A DNA stretch of 63,845 bases, filler included, from 4 parts of 4 records of this genome joined end to end with filler, not necessarily neighbours in it; one strand, 5' to 3'; counted from the first letter of the whole stretch, positions 3,812 to 40,994 are shown. Made by a program: numbers and translations. Notes: a model not told the origin generated them from the sequence alone.

Positions 3812-3828
3812 GGCGTTTTACGATCCAT

Positions 3829-6200: not shown

Positions 6201-6231
6201 ATCTGCGCTCAACAGTTAAGTTTCAGGGACA

Positions 6232-7584: not shown

Positions 7585-7614
7585 GCCCCAATCCTCGCAC
7601 CACTCTGAAAAGAG

Positions 7615-7654
7615 TTGTCAGGGGTGCGTAAAAGGGTTGTAAGAAAATTGTAAG
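7615..7654 (-). promoter_or_regulatory. Four direct repeats with 11-bp period; candidate OmpR-family operator
   Basis: TTGTCA 7615, GCGTAA 7626, TTGTAAG 7637, TTGTAAG 7648, upstream of the VWA-HK-RR genes. Confidence 0.55.
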
Positions 7655-7657
7655 TTC

Positions 7658-8374: not shown

Positions 8375-8526
8375 GGCGCGACCATTGCGCACAATTCGGC
8401 ATCCGGCAAGAAATCGAGGCTCCGCAGAACTTTTTGAAAGTTCGGCTACGTCTGGAATTCTACGATCCGATAGGGTTGGTTCATCGAACGCATACTGTTG
8501 GATCGTAGAGTCCGTTTTCGCTGGAA

Positions 8527-8901: not shown

Positions 8902-9002
8902 CCGCTAGATCAGATGGTAATTGGCGCCGATTTTTCTTTGTTCTCAGCGCTTGGTAGGCTTGAATTGGCACTTCCTCGTTTTCTAACACGAAACCTGAAT
9001 TC

Positions 9003-11885: not shown

Positions 11886-12817
11886 ATCGGTTTCTTCTGC
11901 CAATCGTTGCTGCTATTTTTCTGGCAACCAGCTCACACGCACTTGATGTGATTCATCTGCCGGATGGTCAATCCATTCAGTGTCGGATCGATGCGATTAC
12001 CGACAACATCGTGACTTATTCGACCTCGGTGCGTCTGCCAAATGGCCGAACCGGAACTTCGCAGCGGACCATTCCAGCTGACCGCGTGAAGTTTATCGAC
12101 TTCGGGCCGATCCCCGGTGAAACGGAATTGATGGCGAAATTGGGAACGGCGACAGTCGAAGAAATTGACCTGATTTGGGATAAAAAATATCGCAATCTCC
12201 ATCGCCCGAAATCAAACACCGGAACGATTGGAATTGCTCTCGGCAATGCGCTGTTGAAAAAGGAAAACGACTTTCACTGGAAGCGTGCGCTCGAATTGTT
12301 CGGCATCATTCACAAAGAAGCGTGGGATCAGGGATCAAAGAATGCAGCGAAACAAGGGCGGCTCAAAACGCTGATTCGGCTGGGCGAATTGGAAACAGCA
12401 ATTACCGAGGCCCGACAGCTCGCGACCGAAACGGAAGATGCCACGATGCTGATCGAAGCTCGCTACATCGTGGCGCGTGCGGATTTTGAGAAACTGAAAC
12501 AACTCGAAGAAGAGAATCCCAAATGGGAAGAAGACGACACCGTTCGGCCCGATCGAAATCGATTGTATCACACCACGATCGATCAATTTTTATGGCCCTA
12601 CTTGTTTCATGGAACGAAAGTGGAAGTTGCTTCGCGAGGACTTTTTGCCGCTGGTGAAGTCTATCAGTTTGCAAATAAAGCAGATCTCGCCAAAGCCTGT
12701 TTTGCAGACATCGTGCAACTTTATCCTGAATCCGAAGCTGCGATGAAAGCTCAGGAAATTTTTCAGAATTTTAACACAACCACAGAACCGACTGATGACC
12801 CACCCGAAACCAAGTAG
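11882..12817 (+). CDS. Secreted hypothetical protein with C-terminal TPR
   Basis: Signal peptide; ATGA overlap with upstream gene; DIVQLYPES.AA TPR-type end. Confidence 0.75.
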   Translation: MNRFLLPIVAAIFLATSSHALDVIHLPDGQSIQCRIDAITDNIVTYSTSVRLPNGRTGTSQRTIPADRVKFIDFGPIPGETELMAKLGTATVEEIDLIWDKKYRNLHRPKSNTGTIGIALGNALLKKENDFHWKRALELFGIIHKEAWDQGSKNAAKQGRLKTLIRLGELETAITEARQLATETEDATMLIEARYIVARADFEKLKQLEEENPKWEEDDTVRPDRNRLYHTTIDQFLWPYLFHGTKVEVASRGLFAAGEVYQFANKADLAKACFADIVQLYPESEAAMKAQEIFQNFNTTTEPTDDPPETK

Positions 12818-13622
12818 CAGCCATTTTTGGAAAATTACCCTGCTTTCCGCAACCCTGATTTTTTCCAACGGAGCGATCAGCTTCGCCCAGGATGGCAATG
12901 CCGACACCGTCACTACAACTGAAGACGGCACGACTGTTGAAACGCAATCGGCGCTTGATCTTTACAAACAGGGCGGCGGTTTCATGCACGTGCTTTTGAT
13001 TTGCTCGATCGGCACGATTGCCGTTGCCGTTTATTGCTTTGTTCAAATCAACGCCAATAAAATGGTCCCCAAAACAATGGTCGATCAGGTGAATGCCGCG
13101 ATGGCCTCGAAAGATGTCGGCTCGGCCTATCAAGTTTGTCAATCGACGCCAAACAGCTACGCGAACGTCATTTCGAGTGCGTTACTGAAAGTTAATTTTG
13201 AGCGTGATTTAGCGAACAAGGTTTCCATGGTTGATGCCGCCGGCGAATTGCTCGACGAAGAAGAGCACAAACAGATGGTGTGGATCAATTACCTGAATGT
13301 CTTCGCGGTTCTTGCTCCGATGATTGGATTGCTGGGAACGGTTTGGGGAATGATTCAGGCGTTTGATCAACTAACCTCTGGAAATGCGGGACCCGCGGAA
13401 TTGGCGGGCGGTATTAAAATTGCGATGGTGACGACGGCGGGCGGACTTCTCGTGGGAATTCCGGCGATGTTTTTCTACCTGTTTTTCCGCGACCGATTGC
13501 AGGGAGTGATGACAAAAATTCAACGCCACGCCAGTTTCGCGATCGATATTTTATCCGGCGAAATTCGACTCGAAGGCGCATCCACTCCCGCTGAAGAAGT
13601 TGCGGCTGAGCCCGAAGCGTAA
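12795..13622 (+). CDS. exbB: MotA/TolQ/ExbB proton channel protein
   Basis: APMIGLLGTVWGMI..F and GGI..AMVTTAGGL.VGIPA. Confidence 0.9.
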   Translation: MTHPKPSSSHFWKITLLSATLIFSNGAISFAQDGNADTVTTTEDGTTVETQSALDLYKQGGGFMHVLLICSIGTIAVAVYCFVQINANKMVPKTMVDQVNAAMASKDVGSAYQVCQSTPNSYANVISSALLKVNFERDLANKVSMVDAAGELLDEEEHKQMVWINYLNVFAVLAPMIGLLGTVWGMIQAFDQLTSGNAGPAELAGGIKIAMVTTAGGLLVGIPAMFFYLFFRDRLQGVMTKIQRHASFAIDILSGEIRLEGASTPAEEVAAEPEA

Positions 13623-13647
13623 ATCCTGACTCCCGAATCCTTCCCAA

Positions 13648-14052
13648 ATGATCCGCAGAAAAAAAGCAGACGGAGAAGTCGCGTTCAACATCACGCCGAT
13701 GATTGACATGACATTTCTGCTTTTGATCTTTTTCATGGTGACCCAACGGATCACCGAACAGCAGATCAACGTTCCGATTACCCTCCCCATCGCGATTTCC
13801 TCTGTCAAACCCAGCAAGGTCGAGCGCGACATCGTGAACATCGACGGCGTAGGAAATTATTACATCGGCGACCGGCCAGCGACAAAGGACGAGTTGATGG
13901 CTCACCTTCGTATAAAATTTAAAGACTATCCGCCCCTGCAGATTTACCTGCGGGCGGACAAAAACACGCCCACCAAAAAGATCCGCGAATTCATGGACAT
14001 GGCCGCCGAAGTCGGCGCGCTCGATGTGATTTTTGGAACCTACGCCAAATGA
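13648..14052 (+). CDS. exbD: ExbD/TolR family protein
   Basis: NITPMIDMTFLLLIFFMV; LRADK motif. Confidence 0.9.
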   Translation: MIRRKKADGEVAFNITPMIDMTFLLLIFFMVTQRITEQQINVPITLPIAISSVKPSKVERDIVNIDGVGNYYIGDRPATKDELMAHLRIKFKDYPPLQIYLRADKNTPTKKIREFMDMAAEVGALDVIFGTYAK

Positions 14053-14104
14053 AATTTAACCTTCCAACGAACCTACAGGGCGACAAGCTGGCTCGCCAGC
14101 GGTC

Positions 14105-14204
14105 NNNNNNNNNNNNNNNNNNNNNNNNNNNNNNNNNNNNNNNNNNNNTTAATTAATTAANNNNNNNNNNNNNNNNNNNNNNNNNNNNNNNNNNNNNNNN
14201 NNNN
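14105..14204. other. Artificial contig spacer
   Basis: 44 N + TTAATTAATTAA (stops in all six frames) + 44 N; composition changes across it. Confidence 0.98.
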
Positions 14205-14729
14205 TTTACCAACTTTTTCCATAGCCTCAGCAATCATAGATCCTATGTCTTTGTCTGAGTTGGCGGATATAGTTCCAACTTGTTCTATTTCGTTCTGTGT
14301 TTTACATTGTTTTGATATTTTAGAGAGTTGTTCAACCACTGCATCAGTGGCTTTGTCCATTCCTCTTTTTAAATCCATTGGGTTCATGCCGGCAGTGATA
14401 TACTTAACACCTTCATTAACAATTGCTTGAGCTAACACTGTGGCAGTGGTTGTTCCATCACCTGCTTCTTCGTTGGTTCTGCTGGCAACTTCCTTAACCA
14501 TCTGAGCACCCATGTTGGCTAGATCATCTTTTAATAAAATTTCTTTTGCTACTGTGACACCATCTTTGGTTATTGCTGGAGCACCCCATGTTCTTTGTAG
14601 AACAACATTTCTACCTTTGGGTCCTAGAGTTATTCTCACAGCATTTGCTAGAATATCTACTCCTTGAATTAGTTTGCTTCTGCTACGAGATCCAAATTCT
14701 ACTTTTTTTGTTTTACCATTAATTGCCAT
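14205..14729 (-). CDS. groEL: Chaperonin GroEL (3' truncated by contig end)
   Basis: [33 protein letters not shown]. Confidence 0.96.
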
Positions 14730-21045: not shown

Positions 21046-21624
21046 GTGTTTAAAAGAATAGAAAACGTATTATCAGAAGCAGACTACAATCAATTACACG
21101 ATACATTATCATCGTTCCAATTTGACTGGCACTACTTGCCATCATCTGTGCCACCAGATGTAATAGATGTTGTAAGTAAATCAAACTCATTTAACTTATA
21201 CGAGCCTGGACAATTTGTTCACATGTTCTACGATCAAAAACCGTTGAGTCCTTACTGGAAGTTGGTCGAACCTATTTTGAAATCACTAGATAAACCGGTG
21301 GTAGAGATGGGCAGAATCAAAGCCAATTTATTGATGCAGAATAACAGCGATAATCATGCTGTGAATTGTCCACATGTGGATAGAGATCGAGAAGGTTGGC
21401 ACAGTTTAATATATTATCTTAACGACTCCGATGGTGACACTGTATTGTTTGATAAAAAAGGCAATCAAGGCTGGGATAATTTACAAGTTCAAGACACAGT
21501 AACACCTAAGAAAAATACTGCTGTGCTGTTTGAAAGCGATCAGTATCATGCCGGAACGAATCCTATTGACAACACCAGACGAATTGTGTTAAACTTTATT
21601 TTAAAATTTAAAAATGTTATTTAA
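21046..21624 (+). CDS. 2OG-Fe(II) oxygenase superfamily protein
   Basis: HVD, IYYLNDSDGDT, H...RIVLN. Confidence 0.85.
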   Translation: MFKRIENVLSEADYNQLHDTLSSFQFDWHYLPSSVPPDVIDVVSKSNSFNLYEPGQFVHMFYDQKPLSPYWKLVEPILKSLDKPVVEMGRIKANLLMQNNSDNHAVNCPHVDRDREGWHSLIYYLNDSDGDTVLFDKKGNQGWDNLQVQDTVTPKKNTAVLFESDQYHAGTNPIDNTRRIVLNFILKFKNVI

Positions 21625-21646: not shown

Positions 21647-21877
21647 ATGGATGATCATCGTATGCACATGGAAGAAATTAACCTAGTCGATTTATACCAA
21701 GAAGAAATTGATTTTCTTAATCAACAAAACAACTCGTTAGAAAAATCTACAGATCCTATAGACCAAAGACAGTGCTGGAAAAACGAAATTGTGATTCAAT
21801 ATTTCAAAAGAAGAATTGATGAAGAATTAGATATACAAGGTCAATTCAGAGCTCAATTGCCTAAAACTTTACATTAA
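21647..21877 (+). CDS. Phage hypothetical protein
   Basis: 76-aa ORF; TAAATA 5 nt upstream. Confidence 0.6.
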   Translation: MDDHRMHMEEINLVDLYQEEIDFLNQQNNSLEKSTDPIDQRQCWKNEIVIQYFKRRIDEELDIQGQFRAQLPKTLH

Positions 21878-22284
21878 TCGCAACTGCTGATAACTTTAAG
21901 ATACATGGAATCGTATTCCCAGTTAACACCGTGAACTTCCAATAGATATTTTTTTTGAAGTGGATATATTTCTGCTTCAGATTGAGCTATACAATCAAAC
22001 TTGGTGCCCACAGCATCATTCAAATCGTGTACATAATGCATTAACTCATGCATCAATACACCTTTGTCAAACACATTGAACATATTAAAAGTGTCTTTAA
22101 GATATATGGTGTCTGTGCTAGGATCATACAAAGCATGGATCTCACTGTCTGGTACGACATGACCAAAGTGCATTTGATTTAAACTGCTTTGACTCACCAT
22201 CTTTATTGCCGGATGTGGAATCAGAGTGTTGTAATCTGTTTCTGCACCAATCCACAATAATATAAAAGCAACCAATGTTTTCAT
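21874..22284 (-). CDS. HExxH zincin-like protein (DUF6647-like)
   Basis: ALYD....TIYL, LMHELMHYVH, C....EAEIY; start ATG 22284 with TAAATA 5 nt upstream. Confidence 0.7.
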   Translation of the reverse strand: MKTLVAFILLWIGAETDYNTLIPHPAIKMVSQSSLNQMHFGHVVPDSEIHALYDPSTDTIYLKDTFNMFNVFDKGVLMHELMHYVHDLNDAVGTKFDCIAQSEAEIYPLQKKYLLEVHGVNWEYDSMYLKVISSCD

Positions 22285-22417
22285 GCAAATATTTAAAATA
22301 AACAAGGTGTTTATTTTAGTGTCTTTTAAGTTATGTGAGTAGTTAATCCTTAATAGTATCTGATTATAATAACAGCATACTTTATTAAATATTAGTATAT
22401 TAAAAGAGGGCAACTAC

Positions 22418-25400
22418 ATGGCAATTTTTACAGATCCGTTAGCAATTGGGAAAATTACCACAGCCGAACAACCGTTCACAATTCAACGTGGTAATGAAAC
22501 GATAGAATTAAGCGAAGGTGATTTCATCTATCTAGATGACATGATCAGTGCTGGCGGAACTGCTGTGGGTATTGCTTTCGCAGATGAGACCACAATGTCC
22601 GTTGACCCAAACAGCACCATGGTCATAGATGATTTCGTGTACGATCCCGAGAATCCAACGGTGGGATCTATGAATGCCAATGTACTAGAAGGTAACTTCT
22701 CATTCGTCTCAGGACAGATTGCTAAAACAGGCGCTGACGCAATGAAGGTGACTACACCTGTATTAACAATTGGCGTAAGAGGTACACAGGTAGCGGGTAA
22801 AGCCAACACAGACGGTGAAGAAAATGAAATAGTATTGTTACCGAATGAAGATGGTTCAGTTGGACAAGTGATGATTAAAAACGATTCCGGTGAGGTGTTG
22901 TTGACAGAGGCATACCAAGCAACCATTATCACTGATCCATACACTGTACCAACAGTTCCAGTGATATTGTCAAAAGACGTAGTGCTTAAAAAGTTTGCGA
23001 AAACAATCGCAACAACTAAAAAAACAGAAGCCAAAGCAAAGGTGGAAAGGGATACCGAAGAAGCCACCAAAGAAAAAGCAGAAGCAGAAAAAGAAGGCGA
23101 GGAACTGGAAGAAGAGAAAGAACAACTAGAAGAAGAAAAAGAACAACTGGAAGAGGAAGCCGAGGAACTTGAAGAAAAATCTGAGGAACTGGAAGAGGAG
23201 GCAGAGGAACTTGAAGGAGAAGCCAAAGAGTTGGACGAGAAAGAAGAAAAGGTTTTAGAAGAAAAAGAACAAGCAGAGGAAAAGAAAGAGGAAGTTGCTG
23301 AGGAGATTGAGGAGTTGGCAGAAAAATTGGAAGAAGCACCCATCGAGGAAAGAGAAAAGATCGAACAAGAACTGCAACAGTTGGAAGAAGAATTCATAGA
23401 GATCGAAGAAGAGGTACAACAGATCGAACAAGAAATTGAAGTGGTTGCTCAAGAGAAAGCAGTTGTGGAACAAAAAGTTCAAGAGATAGAAAAAGAATTT
23501 GCCGAAATCAAAGAGGACTTCGCAGACATAGAAGCCAAAGTAGAGTTTGTAGAAAAAGAAGTGCTACAGGTTATCGAAAAGGAACTAGTGATTGAGCAAA
23601 GAGTTCTGGCTGTGGAACAGAGATTCGAGGCCATCGTACAAAACTTTGAAAAATTCCAAGAGGAATTCGTACAAGAGTTTGAAGAATTCATACCAGTGGA
23701 AGAGATGCAACAGTTCAAAGAAGAAGCACCACAGGACATGATGCGTGACGTACAGGAGAACGTCATGAAAGAATTCAATGAAGTGGTGGAAGCACCACAA
23801 GAGATCATGGAGGAGGAACCCAAAGACATCTTCGCTGAGGAGAACGTGGAAGAGCAGATGCAGGAGATGGAAAACAACGAAGAATTCCAGGAATTTGAAA
23901 AGATGATGGAAGAGGAAATGGCACCAGAGGGATTCAATGAGAGCGATGATGTGTTCAAGGTGGATGAGAAAAATCAAGTCGATGATCAAGCAGTGGAACA
24001 GTTCATACAGGAAGAAAAAGAGAAAGCACTGATGGAGGATCCCATAGCACAGGAGATGGACAACTTCTTCCAGGAGATGGATCCCGACAATAAAAAGATC
24101 GACCAACAGGTCAAAGACATGATTGTGATAGAATCCCAGAACATAAATGAATGGTTCGATGGTGCTGGTGCAGGCATCAACAACGCTGATGATTTTTACG
24201 CCCTAGAGGATAACGGTTATTGGGACATGATAGACAACAACGAGGACGCCTACTACGATGCCATAGAGGCAGATGCCATCATGGATCAGTTCATGTACGA
24301 CATGGCGGAGGAGCAGAACATCAACGTGGCCCCATGGTTGCAGATGCCCAACGCAGTCACGGTCAATGAAAATCTGGCAGTGAACGAGACTCTGGAATAC
24401 GTGTATGGATCAGATGCAAACAATGACCAACTGACGTTTTCGATATTTGATGATCCCACTGGCAAGTTGAAAATAGTAGGCAACAGGATAACATTGGACT
24501 CGGCATTCTCAGTGACCGAAGACACTACCTACACCATACTGTTGAAGGTGCAAGATCCATATGGTGCGTCAGACATAGACTCATGGCAGATCACCGTGGA
24601 GAACAACCACTCACCCGAGATATCCAACACCAGTGCTGTGTCACTGGGAGAGGATGACAGTATAGGCACAGCAGTGGCAACCATATCGGCCTCGGACGAA
24701 GAGAGCGAGACAATCACATACGCAATCACGGCGGGCAACACAGGCAACGCATTCACAATCAATTCAAGCACGGGTGCGATCACAACCGCGGCGGCGCTGG
24801 ACTACACGGCCACAGCCAGTTACACACTGACAATAACTGCCACTGACGCATGGGGCAACGCAACCACTACCACACAGACGGTGAACGTCACAGAAGGGGA
24901 AGGTGATGGGATTGCAAGTTCATGGGTCACAGCAGGAGATGGTTCAGCGGGTGCATACAAACAGAAGATCGGATACGTAGGAACGGGAGATGGTGCTGGC
25001 ATAATCACAGCACTGGGACACACTGCGGAGGCCTACGATGCCAACAACCTTGACACCTATGACGTGATAGCATACTACAATTCCTCCAACGGTCAGTTTT
25101 ACCCCAGTCCATTCAGCACGGCACTGACCACTTGGGTCGATGATGGTGGTGTGTTGGTGGTGTATGACAGATGGGTCAATGATGCAGGACTGGACACCAA
25201 CCTGCCGGGACACAATGGCAACGCCACGACAGTTAGAGATTCATCAGGCGATGATGCCGCGGCATATAATATAGTGGATGAAAGCACCTCCAACCTGCTC
25301 AAATACGGACCGGGTGGTATCATGGTGGACGACTCATCTGCGTTTAACGATGATCCAGGAGGAGATCACTCCGGTAACAACCACTTAGGCACTTTCAACA

Positions 25401-25999
25401 TAGGTGGCGGTCACGCAACCAACCACGGATACATGACAAATCTTGACTCGGACGTGTTGGGATTGGCCACACGTGACAATAGTAACGAATACATTGATGC
25501 GGTATGGTCTTACGGATCAGGTGCTGTGTACTACTCCACAACACCAACGGACCACTACATCGGTACCAACTTTGCGGAGAATGACGCTTGGGACGCCTAC
25601 GCACTGAACAGCCTGCACTACGCAACCAGTTTGATATTCGACGGATACAGCCAGATAGATGGCACCAGTTCAGCAGATCAATTGTATGGAACCGCTGGCG
25701 ATGATGTGTTCTGGAGCAAGGACGGCGCAGACGAGATATGGTCAGGCAATGGATCAGACACATTCCTGTACACACAGACCTATCAGACTGATCCCGGATC
25801 AAACGATGTGATACTGGACTTCGACTATCAGAACGACAAGATTGACATCAGTGCCATAACAGGTGGGGCAAGTGTCTCGAGGACATTGACCAACGGCACA
25901 CTGTTCAAACTGGACACGGACAACAACGGCACATACGAGATGCAATGGGATCTGGATGACTACACAGGCACAGCAGACCAGGTGACCGTGATAACATAA
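22418..25999 (+). CDS. T1SS cargo: FecR domain + acidic coiled coil + cadherin repeats + RTX/Ca-binding C-terminus
   Basis: FecR signature (FADETTMSV.PNS.MVIDDFVYDP; VTTPVLTIGVRGT); EELEEEK heptads; cadherin YAITAGN..NAFTINSSTGAITT...LDY; GTAGDD/DGADEIWSGNGSDTF/NDVILDF; no signal peptide. Confidence 0.85.
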   Translation: MAIFTDPLAIGKITTAEQPFTIQRGNETIELSEGDFIYLDDMISAGGTAVGIAFADETTMSVDPNSTMVIDDFVYDPENPTVGSMNANVLEGNFSFVSGQIAKTGADAMKVTTPVLTIGVRGTQVAGKANTDGEENEIVLLPNEDGSVGQVMIKNDSGEVLLTEAYQATIITDPYTVPTVPVILSKDVVLKKFAKTIATTKKTEAKAKVERDTEEATKEKAEAEKEGEELEEEKEQLEEEKEQLEEEAEELEEKSEELEEEAEELEGEAKELDEKEEKVLEEKEQAEEKKEEVAEEIEELAEKLEEAPIEEREKIEQELQQLEEEFIEIEEEVQQIEQEIEVVAQEKAVVEQKVQEIEKEFAEIKEDFADIEAKVEFVEKEVLQVIEKELVIEQRVLAVEQRFEAIVQNFEKFQEEFVQEFEEFIPVEEMQQFKEEAPQDMMRDVQENVMKEFNEVVEAPQEIMEEEPKDIFAEENVEEQMQEMENNEEFQEFEKMMEEEMAPEGFNESDDVFKVDEKNQVDDQAVEQFIQEEKEKALMEDPIAQEMDNFFQEMDPDNKKIDQQVKDMIVIESQNINEWFDGAGAGINNADDFYALEDNGYWDMIDNNEDAYYDAIEADAIMDQFMYDMAEEQNINVAPWLQMPNAVTVNENLAVNETLEYVYGSDANNDQLTFSIFDDPTGKLKIVGNRITLDSAFSVTEDTTYTILLKVQDPYGASDIDSWQITVENNHSPEISNTSAVSLGEDDSIGTAVATISASDEESETITYAITAGNTGNAFTINSSTGAITTAAALDYTATASYTLTITATDAWGNATTTTQTVNVTEGEGDGIASSWVTAGDGSAGAYKQKIGYVGTGDGAGIITALGHTAEAYDANNLDTYDVIAYYNSSNGQFYPSPFSTALTTWVDDGGVLVVYDRWVNDAGLDTNLPGHNGNATTVRDSSGDDAAAYNIVDESTSNLLKYGPGGIMVDDSSAFNDDPGGDHSGNNHLGTFNIGGGHATNHGYMTNLDSDVLGLATRDNSNEYIDAVWSYGSGAVYYSTTPTDHYIGTNFAENDAWDAYALNSLHYATSLIFDGYSQIDGTSSADQLYGTAGDDVFWSKDGADEIWSGNGSDTFLYTQTYQTDPGSNDVILDFDYQNDKIDISAITGGASVSRTLTNGTLFKLDTDNNGTYEMQWDLDDYTGTADQVTVIT
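23099..23230 (+). repeat. About six degenerate 21-nt tandem repeats encoding EELEEEx heptads
   Basis: GA(G/A)(G/C)AACT(G/A/T)GAAGA.. units repeating every 21 nt. Confidence 0.7.
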
Positions 26000-26016
26000 T
26001 AAATACTGGTAATATA

Positions 26017-27753
26017 ATGAAAACTCTAATACATTACACACTGATAGCAATGATGCTCAACTGGAACATAGCCGTCTTTGCGGAAGACAGTGGAGGGTGT
26101 GAATGGGAAGTAGTGGAAGTAACTGAAACTTATATTCAAGAGAAGTGTGGAGACAATCAAGTAAGAATTAAGTCCAAACCTATTGAAGGCATGAACATTG
26201 AGATAGTTGAAGCACCCAAAAATAAAAAAAACAATCCCATAAAAGAATTCAAAGACAAAGTAGAAAAGGCTCCCAAAGTTATTGAGAAAGTTGAAAAACT
26301 TGAGAAGATAGAACAGGAAGTCATAGCCACAGAAGATAAAGTTAAAGAACATATTGAGAAAAAGAAACTGGCAGAAACACCTGTTGCAGAAACAACAAAC
26401 CCCAAAGTTAAAAAAGAAATTGCTAAAAAACAAGTGGACATTAAATCAGATGAAAAACTGGTAAAACAAGCCACAGAAAAAGCATGGTCAGATGTTGACG
26501 CTGATCAAAAAATTACATGGATGCAGTTCCATGAATTGCTACCAAGACTGATCGTTGAGAATGAAAAGATCAAAGCGGCTGAACTAGATTACGAAGCGGC
26601 TGTTGAAGCATTAAAATCAGAATACACAGCATACTATCCTCAGGTTTCTGTATCAATTGGCAACAACTGGGAAGATGATAGAACTCCTGCAAAAGGTACA
26701 TATCCCAACAACACAATCACACACGATTCTAAACAGGGCATACAAAAATCAATCACAGTCACACAGATGATCTGGGACGCAGGCAGAACCACTGCCATGA
26801 TAGACAAAGCCAAAGCAACTGCTCAACAGGCACACTATAGATTGGAACTTACAAAAGAAGATGTTGTAATAGAGGCAATCAATGCTTGGTTAAATTTACA
26901 AAAGGCTTACAACACACACGAAGCGAATAAAAAAATAGAAGCCAATGCTAAAGTTACATTGTCTATGACAATAGAAAAAGTGAAAAAAGGCGAAGGTTCT
27001 AAACTTGAACAATTACAAATTGAACAACAGTACAGAACATATCAAACTCTTTCAATGACAAGTAGATTGGGATTAGACAGTGCTATACAAAGATTTCAAA
27101 ACGTTTGGAGATTCAAACCACACAACATCGCAGGCATGCCAAAACCTTTGGCAGATGCACTTGGTATAATTCCTGTACAAGGAACTCCAGTGTCCAACAA
27201 CACAACACTGCGTATTGCCAGCATGGATGTTACTATTGCTCAAGAACAATTAAATTTTGATAGAGCAGAATTTAAACCAAGAGTGGACGGCAAACTGTCT
27301 TACACAGAGAAGGACGGTGAACTGGCAGGTGGATATGATACAAGTAATTCGCAGAAAGAAGAATGGAGAGCAGACATCACCATGACATGGAAGTTATTCA
27401 ATTTCAAGAACAGACACATGACCAATGCAGACCGTTCTCGTTTGAATGCCGCTAACTTTAGATATTCTAATGTGTTAAGAACCACACAGGAACAGTTCAA
27501 TAACGCATGGAACAACTACGTGTTGGTTGAAAAGAATCTAGCCACTCTGAAGAGAACAGTTGAGATAAATCAAGAAATGTACAAACTCACACTGGCAGAC
27601 TTCCAAGCAGGTAACTCACCCATAATGGCGGTGTTTGGTATGAAGACAGCACACTTAATGAGTGAGGTTGCGTATCTAAACGCACAGATAGATTGGCAGA
27701 TAGCAAGATATCAACTGCACAAGGTGTTAGGTGTTGTAGACCCACTTCTATAA
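26017..27753 (+). CDS. TolC-family outer membrane channel with Lys/Glu-rich N-terminal extension
   Basis: Signal peptide; AYYPQVSV, TQMIWDAGRT, AEFKPRVD, ADITMTWKLFN, YQLHKVLG outer-membrane efflux pattern. Confidence 0.87.
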   Translation: MKTLIHYTLIAMMLNWNIAVFAEDSGGCEWEVVEVTETYIQEKCGDNQVRIKSKPIEGMNIEIVEAPKNKKNNPIKEFKDKVEKAPKVIEKVEKLEKIEQEVIATEDKVKEHIEKKKLAETPVAETTNPKVKKEIAKKQVDIKSDEKLVKQATEKAWSDVDADQKITWMQFHELLPRLIVENEKIKAAELDYEAAVEALKSEYTAYYPQVSVSIGNNWEDDRTPAKGTYPNNTITHDSKQGIQKSITVTQMIWDAGRTTAMIDKAKATAQQAHYRLELTKEDVVIEAINAWLNLQKAYNTHEANKKIEANAKVTLSMTIEKVKKGEGSKLEQLQIEQQYRTYQTLSMTSRLGLDSAIQRFQNVWRFKPHNIAGMPKPLADALGIIPVQGTPVSNNTTLRIASMDVTIAQEQLNFDRAEFKPRVDGKLSYTEKDGELAGGYDTSNSQKEEWRADITMTWKLFNFKNRHMTNADRSRLNAANFRYSNVLRTTQEQFNNAWNNYVLVEKNLATLKRTVEINQEMYKLTLADFQAGNSPIMAVFGMKTAHLMSEVAYLNAQIDWQIARYQLHKVLGVVDPLL

Positions 27754-27783
27754 TATTGTCAAATCAATTAAATACTACTATAT

Positions 27784-28533
27784 ATGACAAGTTTTTTACG
27801 ACAATTATTCCGCGATAAATCAAACGCCATAATGCTATTAACAAGCAGTTTGATCATTGCCATCTGTGCGTTGGCTCCGGCCTTGTTTGTGATTATTGTG
27901 TTGAACAAGTATCTAGCATCTGGAGTTACATCCACCCTGATATCTTTGGGTGTGGGTGCCATACTATTGTTGGCATTTGAATTTGGTTTCAGACAGAACA
28001 GAGCAGGCATGATACAGCAGTTGAACATTAGGATATTCACTCCATTGTTGAATGCATATGCAAAAAAGATTAAAGAAACTCAGATCACAGGAGAACAGTT
28101 TAAAAGATTAGAAGTTGCAGGTGGAACAATTAAGGGTGCAACCGGTTCCAGCATTACTGGTTGGATATTGGATTGGCCATTTGTGTTGGCATTTCTTATT
28201 GTGCTACTCTATATCAATTGGACAGCGGCTTTGATTGCTGGGATATTCATGATCATCATGATGGTGTTAACAGCACAGAGATTGAATCTCAGTCTACAAC
28301 AGGACAGCACAGCAAATTTAGAAATATTTTTAACAGGACTAATGACAGTGGTCATCATGTCAGTGGGTGCGACACAAATTATCGCAGGTTCATTGGACGT
28401 GGGATTATTAATAGGTTCCAACATATTGGCGGCAAGAGCACTGCAAGGTGCTAACAAATATGCCAAAGCAAAGGAGGCAATAGAAAAACGTGACCGAGCA
28501 ACAGCAGAAATCATCAATTTCATCAAACAATAA
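27784..28533 (+). CDS. T1SS ABC transporter transmembrane domain only (no nucleotide-binding domain)
   Basis: ALAPALFVIIVLNKYL, FEFGFRQ.R, LDWPF, GATQIIAGSLDVGLLIGSNILAARAL typical of T1SS ABC membrane domains; no Walker A/B. Confidence 0.8.
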   Translation: MTSFLRQLFRDKSNAIMLLTSSLIIAICALAPALFVIIVLNKYLASGVTSTLISLGVGAILLLAFEFGFRQNRAGMIQQLNIRIFTPLLNAYAKKIKETQITGEQFKRLEVAGGTIKGATGSSITGWILDWPFVLAFLIVLLYINWTAALIAGIFMIIMMVLTAQRLNLSLQQDSTANLEIFLTGLMTVVIMSVGATQIIAGSLDVGLLIGSNILAARALQGANKYAKAKEAIEKRDRATAEIINFIKQ

Positions 28534-29215
28534 ATTCTTTGGCTTGTTGACAAGTCTATTTGTTGTGTTCTTTGTATGGATGTCATTTTCCAAAGTCGAT
28601 ATAACTTCTGTCGCCAACGGACTGGTAATACCTGAAAAAAATATCACAACACTTGGCACAATGGTTACAGGAGAAATTGTGAAAGTGAACCACAAGCAAG
28701 GAGACGTGGTTAAAAAAGGCGACATCATAATCACAATTAATCCTGGAGTAGGATACGAACCTTATCACATACGAGCAAACATAGATGGGAAGATACAACA
28801 ACTTACATTTAAAAATCCAGGCTCTGTGGTAAAACAAGGTGACGCACTGGCAGTGCTGGTACCCCTAGATCAAAAATTAATTGTTCAAGGACAATTGCAA
28901 ATAAAAGACAGAGGCTATGTAGAAGTAGGACAAACAGCAAAAATTAAATTGGCAAGTTCAGAAGCATTCACATACCTTCCAATAGTAGCCAAAATAATTT
29001 CCATATCTCCTGATGCTGTACAAGGACAAGCAATGTCGTTCTATGAAATAGAATTAGAATTAGATTCACAGGCTTTTGCCAACGGAGACTTGCAGTACAA
29101 ACTAGTGCCTGGTGTACAAGTACACGTGTTTATCTTGACTGGAGAACGTACAATATTGAGTTACGTGACAACACCTTTTCACAACAGCATAGGACAGGCC
29201 CTACAAGAGAGATAA
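28490..29215 (+). CDS. Miniature HlyD-family membrane fusion protein
   Basis: TM anchor, lipoyl halves (GDVVKKGD...IRANIDGKI), ISPDA, LVPGVQV..FILTGERTILSY...ALQER C-terminus. Confidence 0.87.
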   Translation: MTEQQQKSSISSNNKFFGLLTSLFVVFFVWMSFSKVDITSVANGLVIPEKNITTLGTMVTGEIVKVNHKQGDVVKKGDIIITINPGVGYEPYHIRANIDGKIQQLTFKNPGSVVKQGDALAVLVPLDQKLIVQGQLQIKDRGYVEVGQTAKIKLASSEAFTYLPIVAKIISISPDAVQGQAMSFYEIELELDSQAFANGDLQYKLVPGVQVHVFILTGERTILSYVTTPFHNSIGQALQER

Positions 29216-29216
29216 C

Positions 29217-29573
29217 ATGGAACAAAAGAAATTAACAATCAGGGAAAGATGGCGTAAGGCCATGACTGCGGACAACATGGTTGATCTCAGTGTTGACATC
29301 TTCCTCATTGTGTTCGACGTGTTGAGCTCTCCCATACTGATCGTCATGAGAATTGTGCGTTGGATATTGGCCAAGTTCGTCAATGACCATGTAAAGAGTT
29401 TTATCAAGAGGATAGTGCATTGGTTCTTGGACAACAGGAAGATCAGACTAGAACGAGGACAGAACATATTCCGTTACTACTGGTACCTGTGGATGTTGAG
29501 TCCTTTTATTGTTTTTGCGTTGTGGATGCTGATAGCAGTCACAATAGGATTAAGACAAGGTGCAGGACTGTAA
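29217..29573 (+). CDS. Small membrane protein within the T1SS-cyclase cassette
   Basis: 118 aa, hydrophobic segments, TAATG coupling to cyclase. Confidence 0.65.
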   Translation: MEQKKLTIRERWRKAMTADNMVDLSVDIFLIVFDVLSSPILIVMRIVRWILAKFVNDHVKSFIKRIVHWFLDNRKIRLERGQNIFRYYWYLWMLSPFIVFALWMLIAVTIGLRQGAGL

Positions 29574-31498
29574 TGAAGATATTCACAAGCATATGGATGG
29601 TGATAGTGTTTGCGATTGTGCTGACAGGAATCAGGATAAACAACAGCGACACAGTAAAAATTATTAGATATAAGACTTGGGACAAATTTCAAACAATTCA
29701 ACCAAGACAGATGGTAAGTGATTCTGTCACTGTTGTAAACATCACAGAACAAGATATTAAGACGTATGGACAATGGCCATGGCCCAGACATGTGATGGCT
29801 ATGCTACACGCAGAGTTGTCTGATGCAGGTGCAATCCTTGTGAACTACAATATAATGTTTGCTGAACCAGACAGAATGAGTGGTGTTGAATATCTAAAAT
29901 CAATGCCTATGACCAATAATTTGCGAGAGCAATTGGGACAAGCATTGTTGGACACAGATGCAATATTCTCCATAGTGTTGAAAGAATCTAAGAAAGCCAT
30001 TTTAATGATGAGTGTTAAAAACACTGCTGACACAAACTTACCCAGCACAACACAGATCATAGAAAAAGGCAACGTGAAGCCATGGTTATACGAGTATGAA
30101 GGCATAGTGTCCCCAAATGCAAAAGTTTCCGTAGGTGCAACAGGCATGGGTGTGAATGTTACTTCACCGGAACCAGATGCTGTTGTGAGAAAGATGCCTG
30201 TGTTAATACGTGTGGGAGATAAGATATATCCCTCTATGCTACTAGAGAATGTTAGACTTTTAAATAAATCAAAAAGAATCAAAGTCATAGCAAAACAACA
30301 CGGCATAGACGAAGTGCTTGTGAGCAAGAAGGCAGGTATACCTGTGAATCATAATGCAGAAATGTATATCAACTATGCAGACCCTTCAATGTATGTTAAT
30401 GTGTCAGCCACAGATATACTGACAGGCAATTACAACGAAAACAAAGTTAAAGGCAGAATTATTGTTATAGGTTTGGATGCCGCAGGATTGAGTGTGTTGA
30501 AATATACACCGCATGGACTTACAACAGATCAAATGATTACTGCCCAATCATTGGATACATTGTTAACAGGCAAATATTTGTTGCGTACACCACAAGCAGA
30601 CACATATGAAATTGCGTTCCTGGCGTTGTTATTATTGCTGTTGATATTAGTACTGCCTAGAACCAGTGTGTTGTTGGCTGTACCTCTTTTATTATTTGTG
30701 GAAGTAGGTGTTGCCTACGGAGCATTCACGGCATACACTAACAAAGGATTTCTTGTAGACCCATCTTGGATAATGTTGTCTGTGTTTTTAATTTGGTCTC
30801 ATTCTGTGTACAACAACTTTGCGACACAGAGCAGATTGAAACAACAGATCAAGAAACAGTTTGAACACTACCTTGATCCTGGCATGGTTAAAAAATTACA
30901 AAAGGATCCCAGCCTACTTAAACTGGGAGGCGAGACAAAGAACATGACTTTCTTGTTCTGTGACATCAGGGGCTTCACACCTATCAGTGAGAAGTACAAA
31001 GGCAATCCAGCAGGACTCACAAAACTTATTAATAGATTCTTGACACGCATGACAGATGTTATAATCTCAAATGGTGGAACAATAGACAAGTTTATGGGTG
31101 ACTGTATTATGGCATTCTGGAACGCACCTATTGAAAATAAAAAACACAGAGAACTAGCAGTTAAAAGTTCTTTGGAAATGACTGTGGCATTGGCAGAATT
31201 GAATATGCATCTACAAGCAGAAGGACTTCCACAGATCAACATAGGAATAGGAATCAACACAGGCGATGCATTGGTGGGTAACATGGGATCGGAACAGAGA
31301 TTTGATTACTCTGTGATTGGCGATGCAGTTAATCTAGCAAGTAGATTAGAGAGCTCATCTAAAACATTAGGCAAAACCATAGTGATAGGTGAGAACACAA
31401 GACACACAATAGAAACAGTTTACCCGTTTGAGTACATTGACAGCATCACAGTCAAAGGTAAGACTGAAAATATAAAAGTTTATACTATTCCTTTATAG
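29573..31498 (+). CDS. CHASE2-domain class III adenylate cyclase
   Basis: CHASE2 GQWPWPR, PEPDAVVRK; TM helices; FCDIRGFT, IDKFMGDCIMAFWNAP, GINTG, RFDYSVIGDAVNLASRLES, VKGK; start ATG 29573. Confidence 0.93.
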   Translation: MKIFTSIWMVIVFAIVLTGIRINNSDTVKIIRYKTWDKFQTIQPRQMVSDSVTVVNITEQDIKTYGQWPWPRHVMAMLHAELSDAGAILVNYNIMFAEPDRMSGVEYLKSMPMTNNLREQLGQALLDTDAIFSIVLKESKKAILMMSVKNTADTNLPSTTQIIEKGNVKPWLYEYEGIVSPNAKVSVGATGMGVNVTSPEPDAVVRKMPVLIRVGDKIYPSMLLENVRLLNKSKRIKVIAKQHGIDEVLVSKKAGIPVNHNAEMYINYADPSMYVNVSATDILTGNYNENKVKGRIIVIGLDAAGLSVLKYTPHGLTTDQMITAQSLDTLLTGKYLLRTPQADTYEIAFLALLLLLLILVLPRTSVLLAVPLLLFVEVGVAYGAFTAYTNKGFLVDPSWIMLSVFLIWSHSVYNNFATQSRLKQQIKKQFEHYLDPGMVKKLQKDPSLLKLGGETKNMTFLFCDIRGFTPISEKYKGNPAGLTKLINRFLTRMTDVIISNGGTIDKFMGDCIMAFWNAPIENKKHRELAVKSSLEMTVALAELNMHLQAEGLPQINIGIGINTGDALVGNMGSEQRFDYSVIGDAVNLASRLESSSKTLGKTIVIGENTRHTIETVYPFEYIDSITVKGKTENIKVYTIPL

Positions 31499-31628
31499 AA
31501 TCTTTATCTATTTCTTTTACAGCAACAACTTCTTTGGGTTCATATGTTTCGTCCCAGCAACAGTCATCTCGGGAAACACACGTGCTCTCTACATATACTT
31601 TTTTGCTCTTCTTTTGATCTTCGTACAT
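31485..31628 (-). CDS. 47-aa Cys-containing peptide
   Basis: AAGGAG RBS before ATG 31628; MYEDQKK...TCVSRDDCCWD. Confidence 0.55.
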   Translation of the reverse strand: MYEDQKKSKKVYVESTCVSRDDCCWDETYEPKEVVAVKEIDKDSIKE

Positions 31629-31640
31629 TGTATTCTCCTT

Positions 31641-31769
31641 TTGTAAAATAATACTTGTAAATTTACTTATAGTAAACTTATAGTAAATTTTGTCGAAAAT
31701 CAATGTCTAAGGTGTAAATTGTGTTGAATGTTTGTAAATTTAAATTTACAAAATTTACAAATAGTAAAT
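31641..31769. repeat. Cluster of GTAAA(T) motifs with an 11-bp tandem repeat and a 22-bp perfect palindrome
   Basis: ACTTATAGTAA x2 (31665-31686); TTTGTAAATTTAAATTTACAAA (31731-31752). Confidence 0.65.
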
Positions 31770-31996
31770 TATTTTTTCTTTTCTCTAGCAGTTTTGACTT
31801 TGGTCTGTAATCTTATCAAATCGTTGTCGAGCAACCTTATCCTATCTATGAGTTTGATTAGTGTTGCTGACGTAGAACTCAACTTGGGTGTGATTTCTGT
31901 TGTAATAAACTTCCACAGGAAGTAAATGAAGTATGCTAGAAAGAATACAGCAACAATAGGAAATCCGTAATCGTTTATGAGTGTAACTATGTCCAT
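31769..31996 (-). CDS. Small single-TM coiled-coil protein (YvrJ/BhlA-like)
   Basis: INDYGFPIVAV + TM + LIDRIRLLDNDLIRL. Confidence 0.7.
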   Translation of the reverse strand: MDIVTLINDYGFPIVAVFFLAYFIYFLWKFITTEITPKLSSTSATLIKLIDRIRLLDNDLIRLQTKVKTAREKKK

Positions 31997-32277
31997 TAGT
32001 CTTTCCTCGCATCTGACTTGCCGTCTGCTCTAGCCACCCTGTCTGTGTCTATTGGCAATCCCAGTTGCTCGGAAACCTCCTGGTCTATTTTGAGTATGTC
32101 GTTGTTCATGGTCTTTACTCTGTTGTCCAGTTGTGAGATCACGCTCTCGATGAACTTGATGGAGTTTACTATGCCATTCAGGATGTATTTTATAATGAAC
32201 AGTATGAACACACCCATTCCCACCGTGGCGGCAATTGGTAATCCTAGCTCTGCTACTAATTGAAAGAACTGTGTCAT
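31996..32277 (-). CDS. Small single-TM coiled-coil protein, paralogue of downstream gene
   Basis: VAELGLPIAA + TM + LDNRVKTMNNDILKI; TATAAATA 8 nt upstream of ATG 32277. Confidence 0.7.
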   Translation of the reverse strand: MTQFFQLVAELGLPIAATVGMGVFILFIIKYILNGIVNSIKFIESVISQLDNRVKTMNNDILKIDQEVSEQLGLPIDTDRVARADGKSDARKD

Positions 32278-32320
32278 TATGTGTGTATTTATAGGCAGTT
32301 GTACACTAGGAATTAAAAGA

Positions 32321-40894: not shown

Positions 40895-40994
40895 NNNNNN
40901 NNNNNNNNNNNNNNNNNNNNNNNNNNNNNNNNNNNNNNTTAATTAATTAANNNNNNNNNNNNNNNNNNNNNNNNNNNNNNNNNNNNNNNNNNNN
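40895..40994. other. Artificial contig spacer
   Basis: 44 N + TTAATTAATTAA + 44 N. Confidence 0.98.

Follow-up and report, generated by a model that had tools for sequence, protein, structure and literature searches.

The window, the whole stretch of DNA analysed here, is 63,845 nt long and consists of several contigs with artificial N44-TTAATTAATTAA-N44 linkers between them. The genes of interest lie on a 26.7-kb contig (14205-40894, 37% GC), which is a separate molecule from the rest of the window; the 51% GC "flanks" around it are unrelated contigs. At its left boundary, a match to record G001 stops at 14104 and a match to IMG/VR record G002 begins at 14205; the contig is collinear with the latter at 88-99% identity. 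The original prediction described a co-directional run of genes for a cargo protein, TolC, an ABC membrane domain, HlyD, a small membrane protein and a CHASE2 cyclase, and each of these genes, with its domains, was found at the place it had proposed. The features are as follows.

14105-14204, no strand: artificial linker, N44-TTAATTAATTAA-N44, bounding the cassette contig on the left
21874-22413, minus strand: DUF6647 protein, divergent gene upstream of the cargo gene (Pfam DUF6647, E 3.3e-12)
22386-22391, plus strand: TAAATA box upstream of the cargo gene
22418-25999, plus strand: cargo, 1193 aa (FecR, Cadherin and RTX domain matches)
26017-27753, plus strand: TolC-family outer-membrane protein (Pfam OEP, 170.1 bits, cut-off 22)
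27784-28533, plus strand: ABC exporter transmembrane domain, 249 aa (NCBIfam LssB, ABC relatives, fold)
28490-29215, plus strand: HlyD-family adaptor, 241 aa (type_I_hlyD, TIGR01843, E 1.4e-47)
29217-29573, plus strand: orf118, 118-aa accessory protein with two TM segments, no family
29573-31498, plus strand: predicted CHASE2 class III adenylate cyclase, 641 aa (CHASE2 132.6 bits, Guanylate_cyc 78.6 bits)
31732-31751, no strand: perfect 20-bp palindrome within the 270-nt spacer after the cyclase gene
31769-31996, minus strand: 75-aa single-TM protein, paralogue of its 93-aa neighbour, at 11 of 12 IMG/VR loci
31996-32277, minus strand: 93-aa single-TM protein, phrog_18771, at 11 of 12 loci
40895-40994, no strand: artificial linker bounding the cassette contig on the right

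The cargo protein opens with a conserved FecR domain (about residues 1-200; 28.8 bits, cut-off 24), which is fused at residue 1 of the predicted exported protein. This is followed by a Glu-rich helical linker (about residues 205-560, 35% Glu), a Cadherin domain (residues 741-825, 58.1 bits), a region with no assigned domain (about residues 826-1080), an RTX block (residues 1081-1115; RTX repeat 28.3 bits, cut-off 23) and an acidic, serralysin-like C-terminus (E 3.7e-14). Neither a hydrophobic segment nor a Sec signal peptide was found in the cargo; judged from its sequence, the RTX block, the acidic C-terminus and the missing signal are traits of a type I substrate. The related cargos are cadherin/RTX proteins of 1,000-1,300 aa, in which the N-terminus is 66-95% identical and the remainder unalignable; the distal part is rapidly swapped, being exchanged between phages with 99% identical flanks, and looks like a ligand-binding fibre.

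The three genes downstream resemble the parts of a type I secretion system (T1SS). The TolC protein, corresponding to the T1SS duct, matches TIGR01844 (E 4.2e-31) at 108.4 bits, below the full-length cut-off of 225, and consists of a signal peptide, a variable charged N-terminal extension (23-170), a conserved Cys...Cys motif and a conserved core. The 249-aa ABC protein has only a sub-threshold match to Pfam ABC_membrane (17 bits, cut-off 28), and its T1SS ancestry is seen in a match to NCBIfam LssB (E 1.9e-14), in matches to ABC relatives of 540-590 aa (E about 1e-22) and in a fold comparison in which HlyB ranks first. Its alignment to full-length T1SS ABC proteins falls into two blocks and lacks the nucleotide-binding domain (NBD) and 56 columns: about 56 residues are missing between TM4 and TM5, and in the alignment the protein stops before Walker A, leaving a transmembrane domain with no ATP-binding cassette. 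No PF00005 match above the cut-off was found in five related viral records, all of them fragments, and a separate NBD may be encoded elsewhere.

The HlyD-family adaptor is trimmed in a comparable manner. It scores 162.6 bits against TIGR01843 (cut-off 208.65), and its match to E. coli HlyD (E 8.2e-22) covers only residues 67-128 and 329-478 of the latter. The TM anchor, the lipoyl domain and the beta-barrel domain are retained, while the alpha-helical hairpin (HlyD 129-328) is skipped and the N-terminal cytoplasmic segment is absent. The gene has a GTG start with AGGAGG 11 nt upstream and overlaps the ABC gene by 44 nt. By these profile, alignment and fold matches, TolC, the 249-aa membrane protein and the 241-aa adaptor are all derived from T1SS parts. 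ABC homologues are 249-250 aa long in the best 120 of 843, and dN/dS is 0.075 for TolC, 0.13 for ABC, 0.09 for HlyD and 0.086 for the cyclase, with medians across five cassette genes of 0.075-0.13 and no stop codons. Since the length is fixed and selection is purifying, the ABC and HlyD proteins are reduced rather than broken, as the original prediction had held.

The predicted cyclase most likely starts at the ATG at 29573, with a one-base overlap with the orf118 stop codon, and comprises a TM segment, a periplasmic CHASE2 domain, a TM bundle and a cyclase domain. Alignment of the motifs DIRGFT, IDKFMGD and VNLASRLES to 6FHT, 2W01 and 3R5G shows an intact catalytic set, which we take to be the two metal Asp residues, the Lys for ATP at the purine-specifying position, and the Asn/Arg transition-state pair. 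The topology, domains and catalytic residues are thus those of a CHASE2 class III adenylate cyclase, and the Lys at the purine-specifying position is that of a predicted adenylate cyclase.

Small membrane proteins accompany these genes. orf118 has a tblastn match at seven of 12 IMG/VR loci, and at least four loci have no room for it. The two single-TM proteins were predicted to be paralogous and to converge on the run; they are indeed encoded on the minus strand, and their paralogy is weak, with 26% identity across 62 aa and a pairwise E of 2e-10 when composition is not corrected for. The ORF of the 93-aa protein extends to 32421 in a longer form, its family phrog_18771 is seen only in viruses, and its gene shares the cassette's strand at five loci and lies on the opposite one at six; the pair is missing at locus L030. 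On the other side of the cassette, the DUF6647 protein has a signal-like N-terminus, a likely start at M44 (22284) and a HELMH (HExxH) motif at residue 122. It is possibly a periplasmic metalloprotease, and as an analogue of a Lap-type retention component it is speculative. Of the six IMG/VR loci extending beyond the cargo on this side, five have its gene; L028 lacks it and L043 has it.

TAAATA boxes had been reported before the cargo, TolC and ABC genes, and were located at 22386, at 26000 (inside ATAAATA) and at 27769, respectively. Their total number is near chance (17 observed, 12 +/- 3.4 expected). They occur within 60 nt upstream of nine of 24 plus-strand starts, against 0.7 expected from a background that ignores the AT-richer intergenic DNA, and none of 300 simulations reached nine. 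The box is similar to the core of a T4-type late promoter.

As the window is a linker-joined pseudomolecule, a phage origin is not readable from its flanks and rests on related contigs; no virion genes were found on the 26.7-kb contig itself. TolC is present at twelve IMG/VR loci, and at each of them it is joined, in unchanged order, by the mini-ABC, mini-HlyD and cyclase genes. One of these relatives (G003; 148 kb, 35.7% GC) has nearly all genes on one strand, six tRNAs, an alpha-type tmRNA, and genes for a tail fibre (E 2.7e-49), a baseplate connector (E 3.5e-28) and a T4-type DNA polymerase (E 1.3e-202), which together support a phage origin for the cassette. The closest polymerases are those of jumbo phages of 349-469 kb. 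The related records have CheckV completeness values of 7-41% and would therefore belong to genomes of hundreds of kb; contigs of up to 286 kb are among the matches listed. The carrier is probably a Rak2/121Q-like jumbo myovirus of an uncultivated marine lineage, whose genome size, going by the CheckV values and the contigs, is probably above 200 kb. Searches of the related records, which are at most 41% complete, gave no capsid or portal match, and none came from control genomes either. Among 185,579 species genomes only two loci were found, both in one MAG and both carrying the same cassette (37.6% GC), which is therefore not a standard cellular locus. On balance, the gene content, the T1SS ancestry, the reduction and the viral carrier of the original prediction stand; its reading of the window as a single viral molecule does not.

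The cassette had been thought undescribed in phages, and this is correct in part. FecR and cyclase genes adjoin CsgF, CsgG and curlin-repeat genes in both Pelagibacter phage HTVC008M and Methylophilales phage Melnitz. The linkage to a curli (T8SS) cluster has already been published for pelagiphages, the phages of SAR11 (PMC9599517; see also PMC7029224 and PMC9004378), and FecR and the adenylate cyclase (AC) of pelagiphages are described as 'putatively regulatory' in the available text of PMC9599517. In that same text, 'TolC' and 'type I secretion' do not occur, and no T1SS-derived version of the phage FecR-cyclase module was found in the literature listings searched.

The two modules share a marine phage carrier and homologous FecR and CHASE2 cyclase genes lying side by side: the FecR proteins of Melnitz and HTVC008M match the cargo FecR domain with 36-37% identity (E about 1e-31), and the cassette cyclase is 31-35% identical to its counterparts over 93% of its length. 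Among 50,697 phage records, this FecR domain has matches in exactly six, the same ones that encode a full-length cyclase. In both modules these genes stand beside a device for export across the outer membrane and a protein of repeat or adhesin type (PA14 and curlin repeats in HTVC008M), and the alpha-type tmRNA is common to G003 and Melnitz. They differ in the export device (TolC, ABC transmembrane domain and HlyD as opposed to CsgG/CsgF), in the fibre (cadherin/RTX as opposed to curlin), in the FecR protein (fused to the exported protein and signal-less here, separate and signal-bearing there) and in the carrier (probably a Rak2/121Q-like jumbo phage, as opposed to a roughly 145-kb Kyanoviridae phage). 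No curli families, CsgG/CsgF included, were found among the cassette proteins with Pfam and NCBIfam profiles. The homology of FecR and cyclase to the published curli-phage genes therefore makes the cassette a T1SS-derived variant of a known phage theme: the surface fibre with FecR and cyclase is the known part, and the T1SS-derived export parts are the novel one.

Compared with canonical T1SS (HlyBD-TolC, PrtDEF, LapEBC/LapA), T1SS subfamilies give all three machine parts their best scores and the cargo has the RTX block, acidic C-terminus and missing Sec signal of a substrate, whereas the NBD, the TM4-TM5 cytoplasmic segment, the HlyD hairpin and the HlyD cytoplasmic N-terminus are all lacking. 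The gene order TolC-ABC-MFP is that of lapEBC. LapA carries an N-terminal retention module, and by analogy the folded N-terminal domain of the cargo could act in a similar way. In contrast with the Lap system, this domain is FecR-type, and neither LapG nor LapD families were found among the cassette proteins with the same profiles. There are functional precedents for the trimmed parts: SbmA/BacA are proton-driven, NBD-less ABC-like transporters, in which a membrane domain of the ABC-exporter type works without an ATPase, and Borrelia BesA is a hairpin-less adaptor serving a TolC-like duct. To our knowledge, none of these exports large proteins.

Genetic linkage of a periplasmic FecR protein to a CHASE2 sensor is also known from cells. 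According to the available text of the respective papers, a FecR-domain protein adjoins a CHASE2 kinase in the Burkholderia 'BiofilmReg' operon (PMC5192318), and S. meliloti CyaD1, linked to SMc02177, becomes constitutive once CHASE2 is deleted (PMC5498481), i.e. the cyclase output is restrained by this domain. Unlike in the cassette, these FecR proteins are described as Sec-exported, without fusion to a secreted fibre and without a secretion machine, and the output of the Burkholderia pair is a histidine kinase.

The reading we favour, with about even confidence, is that uncultivated marine jumbo myoviruses carry a surface-fibre module of T1SS descent, coupled to an envelope sensor that produces cAMP. 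During infection, probably late, the phage would make its own TolC, ATPase-less ABC transmembrane domain and hairpin-less HlyD. Of the Sec-independent cargo, the C-terminal RTX and cadherin part would be exported and would fold on seawater calcium outside the cell, while the FecR domain would be retained in the periplasm, tethered by the roughly 350-residue Glu-rich helix. There, through a putative FecR-CHASE2 contact for which the cellular pairs are a precedent, it would set the cAMP output of the phage cyclase by acting on its periplasmic CHASE2 domain. That FecR is fused at residue 1 of the exported protein points to a physical connection of the fibre with the sensor, and the infected cell probably bears an adhesin-like fibre coupled to a cAMP-making sensor. 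Energy for export might come from a host ATPase, the proton-motive force or a calcium ratchet, and cAMP might control aggregation or 'sibling capture', superinfection sensing or lysis timing. The cassette would then be the T1SS counterpart of the pelagiphage curli module, with FecR and the CHASE2 cyclase as a conserved core and an exchangeable export device and fibre.

Export by a canonical T1SS depends on ATP hydrolysis and on an MFP hairpin that docks TolC, and we know of no precedent for protein export by an ATPase-less ABC protein and a hairpin-less adaptor alone. It is conceivable, though unlikely, that the phage gives only the outer-membrane duct and the cargo, which a host ABC/MFP pair pumps, and that the mini-ABC and mini-HlyD are modulators and not the conduit. 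The missing NBD and hairpin speak for this, as does the failure to find an ABC ATPase in the five fragmentary related records, and pairing of a half-transporter domain with a half from the host is conceivable in principle. The TM4-TM5 segment of ABC exporters couples to NBDs, however, and its loss argues against a working host half as partner; moreover, the mini-ABC and mini-HlyD are always conserved together with the phage TolC and cargo, in fixed order and with overlapping genes. Modulators of this kind could enter host TolC-dependent machines as subunits or block them, or could serve the cyclase as a scaffold.

Less probable again is an envelope-gating or lysis-timing device, in which TolC, the trimmed inner-membrane parts and the two single-TM proteins form a regulated leak or channel timed by the cyclase and FecR. 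The phage-only single-TM proteins at 11 of 12 loci and the late-promoter-like boxes would fit, and for the analogous curli module the available text of PMC9004378 proposes the CsgGF pore as a pinholin or secretin. Yet such a device leaves unexplained a cadherin/RTX protein of more than a thousand residues with a rapidly exchanged distal part, and holin and endolysin families were not detected in the cassette. That FecR and the cyclase are ordinary regulators, with cAMP switching on the fibre operon via a host CRP-like factor and with no fibre sensor spanning the envelope, we regard as quite improbable: cellular FecR domains are part of signalling chains, which favours it, but a FecR domain fused to residue 1 of an exported protein is hard to square with a free regulator. 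Both proteins are nevertheless treated as regulators in the available text of PMC9599517. A reading as a cellular or plasmid locus of low GC, put in the wrong bin and wrongly called viral, is very improbable. The mixed pseudomolecule, the cell-like genes (DnaK, GroEL, RNR, aminotransferase, AlgH-like) and the one MAG are in its favour; the tail-fibre, baseplate and polymerase genes, single-strand gene order and tRNA cluster of the 148-kb relative, and the mere two loci among the species genomes, count against it.

In an independent run, one 5,847-nt DNA contig covers TolC through the cyclase gene. Short near-identical contigs from RNA libraries of two studies touch every cassette gene and may be DNA carry-over. 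The palindrome after the cyclase gene is a structural-variation breakpoint, with loose ends at 31732, 31743 and 31763/4 in four of four runs.

The cassette and the features around it that matter for its interpretation are as follows.

14105–14204, 40895–40994 and 58522–58621: artificial linkers N44-TTAATTAATTAA-N44, with stops in six frames
14157–14729, minus strand: GroEL gene, interrupted by the end of the cassette contig
21874–22413, minus strand: DUF6647 gene
22418–31498, plus strand: cassette (FecR/cadherin/RTX cargo, TolC, 249-aa mini-ABC, 241-aa mini-HlyD, orf118, CHASE2 cyclase)
31499–31768: spacer of 270 nt
31769–31996 and 31996–32277, minus strand: two small transmembrane (TM) genes

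The GC content of the window is about 51% at 1–14 kb and past 41 kb and about 37% between, and the steps fall on the linkers at 14105–14204 and 40895–40994. The window joins at least four contigs into one pseudomolecule, and synteny across the linkers is meaningless. Positions 3295–14104 are 99.97% identical to contig C68 of a 6-Mb bacterium (G001), beyond which the C68 sequence differs; from 33000 to the end, right-hand contigs included, the window has no match in that genome. Because the GC steps are linkers and C68 continues otherwise, the cassette belongs to a separate 26.7-kb contig (14205–40894), and the reading as an island or prophage of a host with 51% GC is ruled out. The genes flanking this contig are of cellular type (two-component system, FabG, others). 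The idea that the window is one viral molecule was therefore not borne out, as the linkers separate the cassette contig from unrelated contigs. The bacterial contig ends in a ~38-nt element (14067–14104) found at 24 more places in G001 with 80–95% identity, a REP-like dispersed repeat that is probably the reason for the assembly break. The final ~740 bp of the cassette contig (40155–40894), which have no match in G001, diverge from the viral record G002; GC jumps to 52–56%, and the segment encodes the first part of a RimK/ATP-grasp-like protein (phrog_2599, E 2e-33). Either it was acquired recently or the contig end is chimeric. Rfam returned zero RNA families in the window.

The inner-membrane components are recognisable as type I secretion (T1SS) parts from which defined pieces are missing. 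The best NCBIfam families for mini-ABC are the T1SS LssB, PrtD and HlyB types. Its AlphaFold model (pLDDT 83.2, pTM 0.74) retrieves HlyB first in Foldseek (E 1.9e-5, TM 0.71 on the query), followed by TmrAB, PCAT1 and PrtD. Pfam alone makes no call (17 bits for the ABC domain vs a cut-off of 28), and a single-sequence PDB search found only MsbA, at E 0.13. Among 3,695 candidates there are 843 homologues at E ≤ 0.001; the best 120 of these are all 249–250 aa, at least 89% identical and on contigs of up to 286 kb, and some of those listed carry JGI labels such as 'LapB'. An exhaustive search gave 325 representatives at E ≤ 0.001: a few are ~250 aa, with identity as low as 30%, and many are 540–590 aa, in which residues ~2–165 and 166–249 of mini-ABC align with 2–170 and 227–310. 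In alignment A1, 56 columns between TM4 and TM5 are empty in the short family, which stops immediately before the Walker A motif of the full-length relatives. Mini-HlyD likewise aligns with E. coli HlyD (8DCK chain C, E 8.2e-22) as two blocks, residues 23–84 with HlyD 67–128 and 93–241 with 329–478, so the ~200-residue α-hairpin and the cytoplasmic N-terminus are absent; it matches the NCBIfam model type_I_hlyD at E 1.4e-47, under the full-length cut-off.

These reduced forms are maintained. A TolC-based scan of IMG/VR, whose pattern matched 15 stretches (13 confirmed), gave 12 loci at 58–98% identity, representing about ten distinct variants since three of them (L021, L022 and L023) are near-identical to one another. 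All 12 contain TolC, mini-ABC, mini-HlyD and the cyclase in the same order, with identities of 61–100% (full length) for mini-ABC, 64–99% for mini-HlyD and 69–100% for the cyclase. The 118-aa orf118 (29217–29573) is present in 7 of the 12, and at least four have no room for it; DUF6647 is present in five of the six loci that extend upstream of the cargo. Nei–Gojobori dN/dS was calculated for 5–7 chosen orthologues per gene, omitting L020 for its closeness, L022 and L023 as duplicates of L021, and also L026, L027, L029 and L031, and setting aside pairs with saturated synonymous sites. The medians are 0.095 for the FecR domain (8/10 pairs usable), 0.075 for TolC (10/21), 0.13 for mini-ABC (17/21), 0.09 for mini-HlyD (15/21) and 0.086 for the cyclase (12/21), and no stops occur in the orthologues used. 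Every cassette part measured is under strong purifying selection; the description of the inner-membrane parts as reduced rather than broken in the original prediction is upheld by the mini-ABC and mini-HlyD values.

Scanning 185,579 species genomes with a pattern built on the mini-ABC alignment, a search limited to fairly close relatives, gave 80 pattern matches and two relatives, both with the same cassette, on 22- and 32-kb contigs (37.6% GC) of one MAG titled 'Rickettsiales bacterium'. TolC and mini-ABC have zero matches among 50,697 phage records, and the HlyD matches there are to complete T1SS genes, in records with a bacterial or fragmentary look. On these searches the cassette appears to be neither a standard cellular locus nor present in isolated phages.

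The carrier was identified from related contigs. Seven of 20 proteins scanned from the cassette contig have PHROG matches, none to a virion protein; besides the truncated GroEL gene, the contig has genes for SAM decarboxylase, an AlgH-like protein, an aminotransferase, DUF454, a 2OG-Fe(II) oxygenase and DUF6267. The viral record G002 (43 kb, CheckV completeness 12%) is collinear with this contig at 88–99% identity, has low GC on both sides, and additionally contains DnaK, full GroEL, an exonuclease, a tail-fibre-like protein and NrdA/NrdB. The 148-kb viral record G003, which holds one cassette locus, has a uniform 35.7% GC and almost all genes on the same strand. Ten of its largest ORFs inside single loci were scanned, omitting a 1,034-aa ORF across two loci. 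The tail fibre (E 2.7e-49), a connector of the baseplate wedge (E 3.5e-28) and a DNA polymerase of the T4 type (E 1.3e-202) are among their products, and three matched no family. The closest isolate polymerases are those of Sinorhizobium phage Phosso (469 kb, 49.7%), a 349-kb Vibrio phage and the 121Q group. CheckV completeness is 7–41% for fragments of 24–148 kb, and the genomes would therefore be several hundred kb. T4 capsid (Gp23) and portal profiles had no match in five related records, a null that is uninformative because control genomes were also unmatched and the records are fragmentary. We take the carrier to be a jumbo myovirus, on the basis of the related contigs and not of the window: the phage origin originally proposed stands through the virion and polymerase genes of G003. 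G003 also carries six clustered tRNAs and one tmRNA (L037:3211–3562, minus strand; L039:5819–7970). The tmRNA is of the alphaproteobacterial two-piece type (RF01849, 92 bits), which, like the title of the MAG, hints at a marine alphaproteobacterial host; one has also been reported in the Melnitz phages.

In the phage lineage DnaK (634 aa) adjoins GroEL (551 aa; L016:3677–7322), with no recognisable GroES, GrpE or DnaJ partners nearby. Genes for 2OG-Fe(II) oxygenases are common in marine phages, and several paralogues are dispersed over these contigs (window 21046–21624, L016:1020–1628, L017:14314–14934).

The cargo is conserved at one end. Its first ~210 residues are found in all six loci reaching far enough upstream, at 66–95% identity; beyond them BLASTP cannot align the proteins, even against G002, whose flanks are 99% identical. 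The relatives keep the domain plan (FecR, cadherin, sometimes RTX) and a length of 1005–1299 aa, suggesting a fibre tip that is rapidly exchanged. An atlas search with residues 826–1080 gave leads only (best score 0.85), and the AlphaFold model of the FecR domain (pLDDT 50.2) is below fold-search quality. TolC has a signal peptide, a Cys...Cys motif, a variable charged extension (31–83% identity) and a conserved core (68–95%). The motif, C-x-W ... E-E-T-x-x-Y-x-x-E-x-C, comes right after the signal peptide in 7/7 orthologues (26080–26150, residues ~22–45), and the extension that comes after it varies in length. The divergent DUF6647 protein has a HELMH zinc-protease-like motif and a signal-like N-terminus; by analogy with LapG, one may speculate that it processes or releases the periplasmic end of the cargo. 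Over-representation of TAAATA as a word overall is unsupported (17 vs 12 ± 3.4); its placement alone is unusual.

The cyclase retains DIRGFT, IDKFMGD and VNLASRLES. Its lysine agrees with the ATP-using engineered Cya2 (6FHT), at a position where the guanylyl cyclase 2W01 has glutamate. A modelled complex of the CHASE2 and FecR domains, made without alignments or controls, scored 0.00 and speaks neither for nor against binding. Full-length homologues of the cyclase (31–35% identity, 93% coverage) are found in six phage records, one a duplicate: Pelagibacter phage HTVC008M and four Methylophilales Melnitz phages. Exactly the same six of the 50,697 phage records have FecR-domain matches (36–37% identity over ~190 residues, E ~1e-31). 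The order there is CsgF, CsgG, a curlin-associated/curlin-repeat protein (record annotation), FecR, a second curlin-repeat protein and the cyclase; Pfam finds curlin repeats in the second protein, with PA14 also in the HTVC008M copy. The FecR proteins of these phages start with a signal-like segment, whereas here the FecR domain begins at residue 1 of a Sec-less cargo. The FecR and CHASE2 cyclase core is thus common to both, while the export device is a curli system (T8SS) in pelagiphages and T1SS-derived here.

The T8SS clusters of pelagiphages are described as containing FecR and adenylate cyclase, and as present at all 65 GOV2.0 stations and expressed (PMC9599517); 'TolC', 'type I secretion' and 'CHASE2' have zero occurrences each in that paper. 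The claim that no such system had been described in a phage therefore needs narrowing: FecR and cyclase with an export device are known (PMC9599517), and our literature search found no relevant report of a phage T1SS among the entries listed. Phage curli genes have been suggested to serve in 'sibling capture' or uptake, or to act as pinholin or secretin (PMC7029224, PMC9004378), FecR and the cyclase being unmentioned in the accessible portions. Cellular precedents are a CHASE2 kinase with a FecR protein beside it (PMC5192318), and CyaD1, which is constitutive without CHASE2, with a FecR-domain protein among Clr targets (PMC5498481).

The annotation-level facts on the cassette are secure, and several readings of its function have to be weighed. 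Mis-binned cellular DNA would fit the occurrence of the cassette in one MAG; the virion and polymerase genes of G003 speak for a phage. FecR and the cyclase could serve plain transcriptional regulation, or the cassette could be a lysis or permeability gate, recalling the pinholin and secretin proposals. We favour over these a surface fibre made by the phage, with a periplasmic FecR end that would signal to the CHASE2 cyclase, because FecR is fused to the exported protein, because two different export devices are each accompanied by the FecR–cyclase pair, and because the fibre tip is swapped rapidly. We consider the chances of this reading to be evenly balanced. Its weak point is the energy source, as there is no ATPase and no hairpin; export might instead be host-assisted, with the trimmed ABC and HlyD parts acting as modulators.

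A fuller version of the surface-fibre reading, which we regard as improbable, combines ATPase-free export with a FecR plug that reports tip contact to the cyclase and so sets cAMP. Of the T1SS there would remain an ABC domain confined to the membrane, an adaptor lacking its hairpin and a TolC carrying a long charged tether of its own, and the ~1,200-residue fibre would be driven out by proton-motive force, by calcium-dependent folding in seawater, or by both. The N-terminal plug would report an outer-tip ligand (sibling cells, particles or superinfecting phage), making the infected cell a phage-controlled mechano- or ligand sensor in which cAMP could drive aggregation or lysis timing.

Having lost its ATPase, the segment that couples to the NBD and the hairpin that docks TolC, the cassette is a natural experiment on the minimum for a T1SS-type machine. 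We know of no identified signal for the FecR–CHASE2 pair, even in bacteria. Its association with two unrelated export devices in different marine phage families is comparative evidence that it monitors an exported surface fibre, and the question of what CHASE2 senses becomes directly testable. The debate on 'sibling capture' and lysis timing now reaches jumbo phages, and cAMP is pointed to as a phage-controlled second messenger in ocean bacteria.

Parts of the cassette are plentiful in marine metagenomes and strongly selected despite the missing T1SS pieces. A near-identical cassette (at least half of sampled words) is found in 13 runs, and some of it in 19 of the 23 listed runs, from 11 studies, almost all marine, with six RNA libraries. 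A 5,847-nt contig from one DNA run covers 25915–31761 with nine differences. Three RNA-library runs (two studies) gave short contigs, several with 0–2 differences to the cassette; they touch the cargo, TolC, mini-ABC, HlyD/orf118, the cyclase and the small TM genes, with DNA carry-over possible, and the stretches without such cover are not evidence of silence.

The spacer downstream of the cyclase contains a perfect 20-bp palindrome (31732–31751) surrounded by GTAAAT-type repeats, and is missing from relatives such as L021 (gap ~38 nt). The small TM genes beyond it occur in 11 of the 12 loci, on the opposite strand in six and on the same strand in five; the pair is thus inverted beside the palindrome in 5/11 relatives. 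Contigs from 4/4 runs compared end at 31732–31764, and the region looks like a recombination or inversion hotspot.
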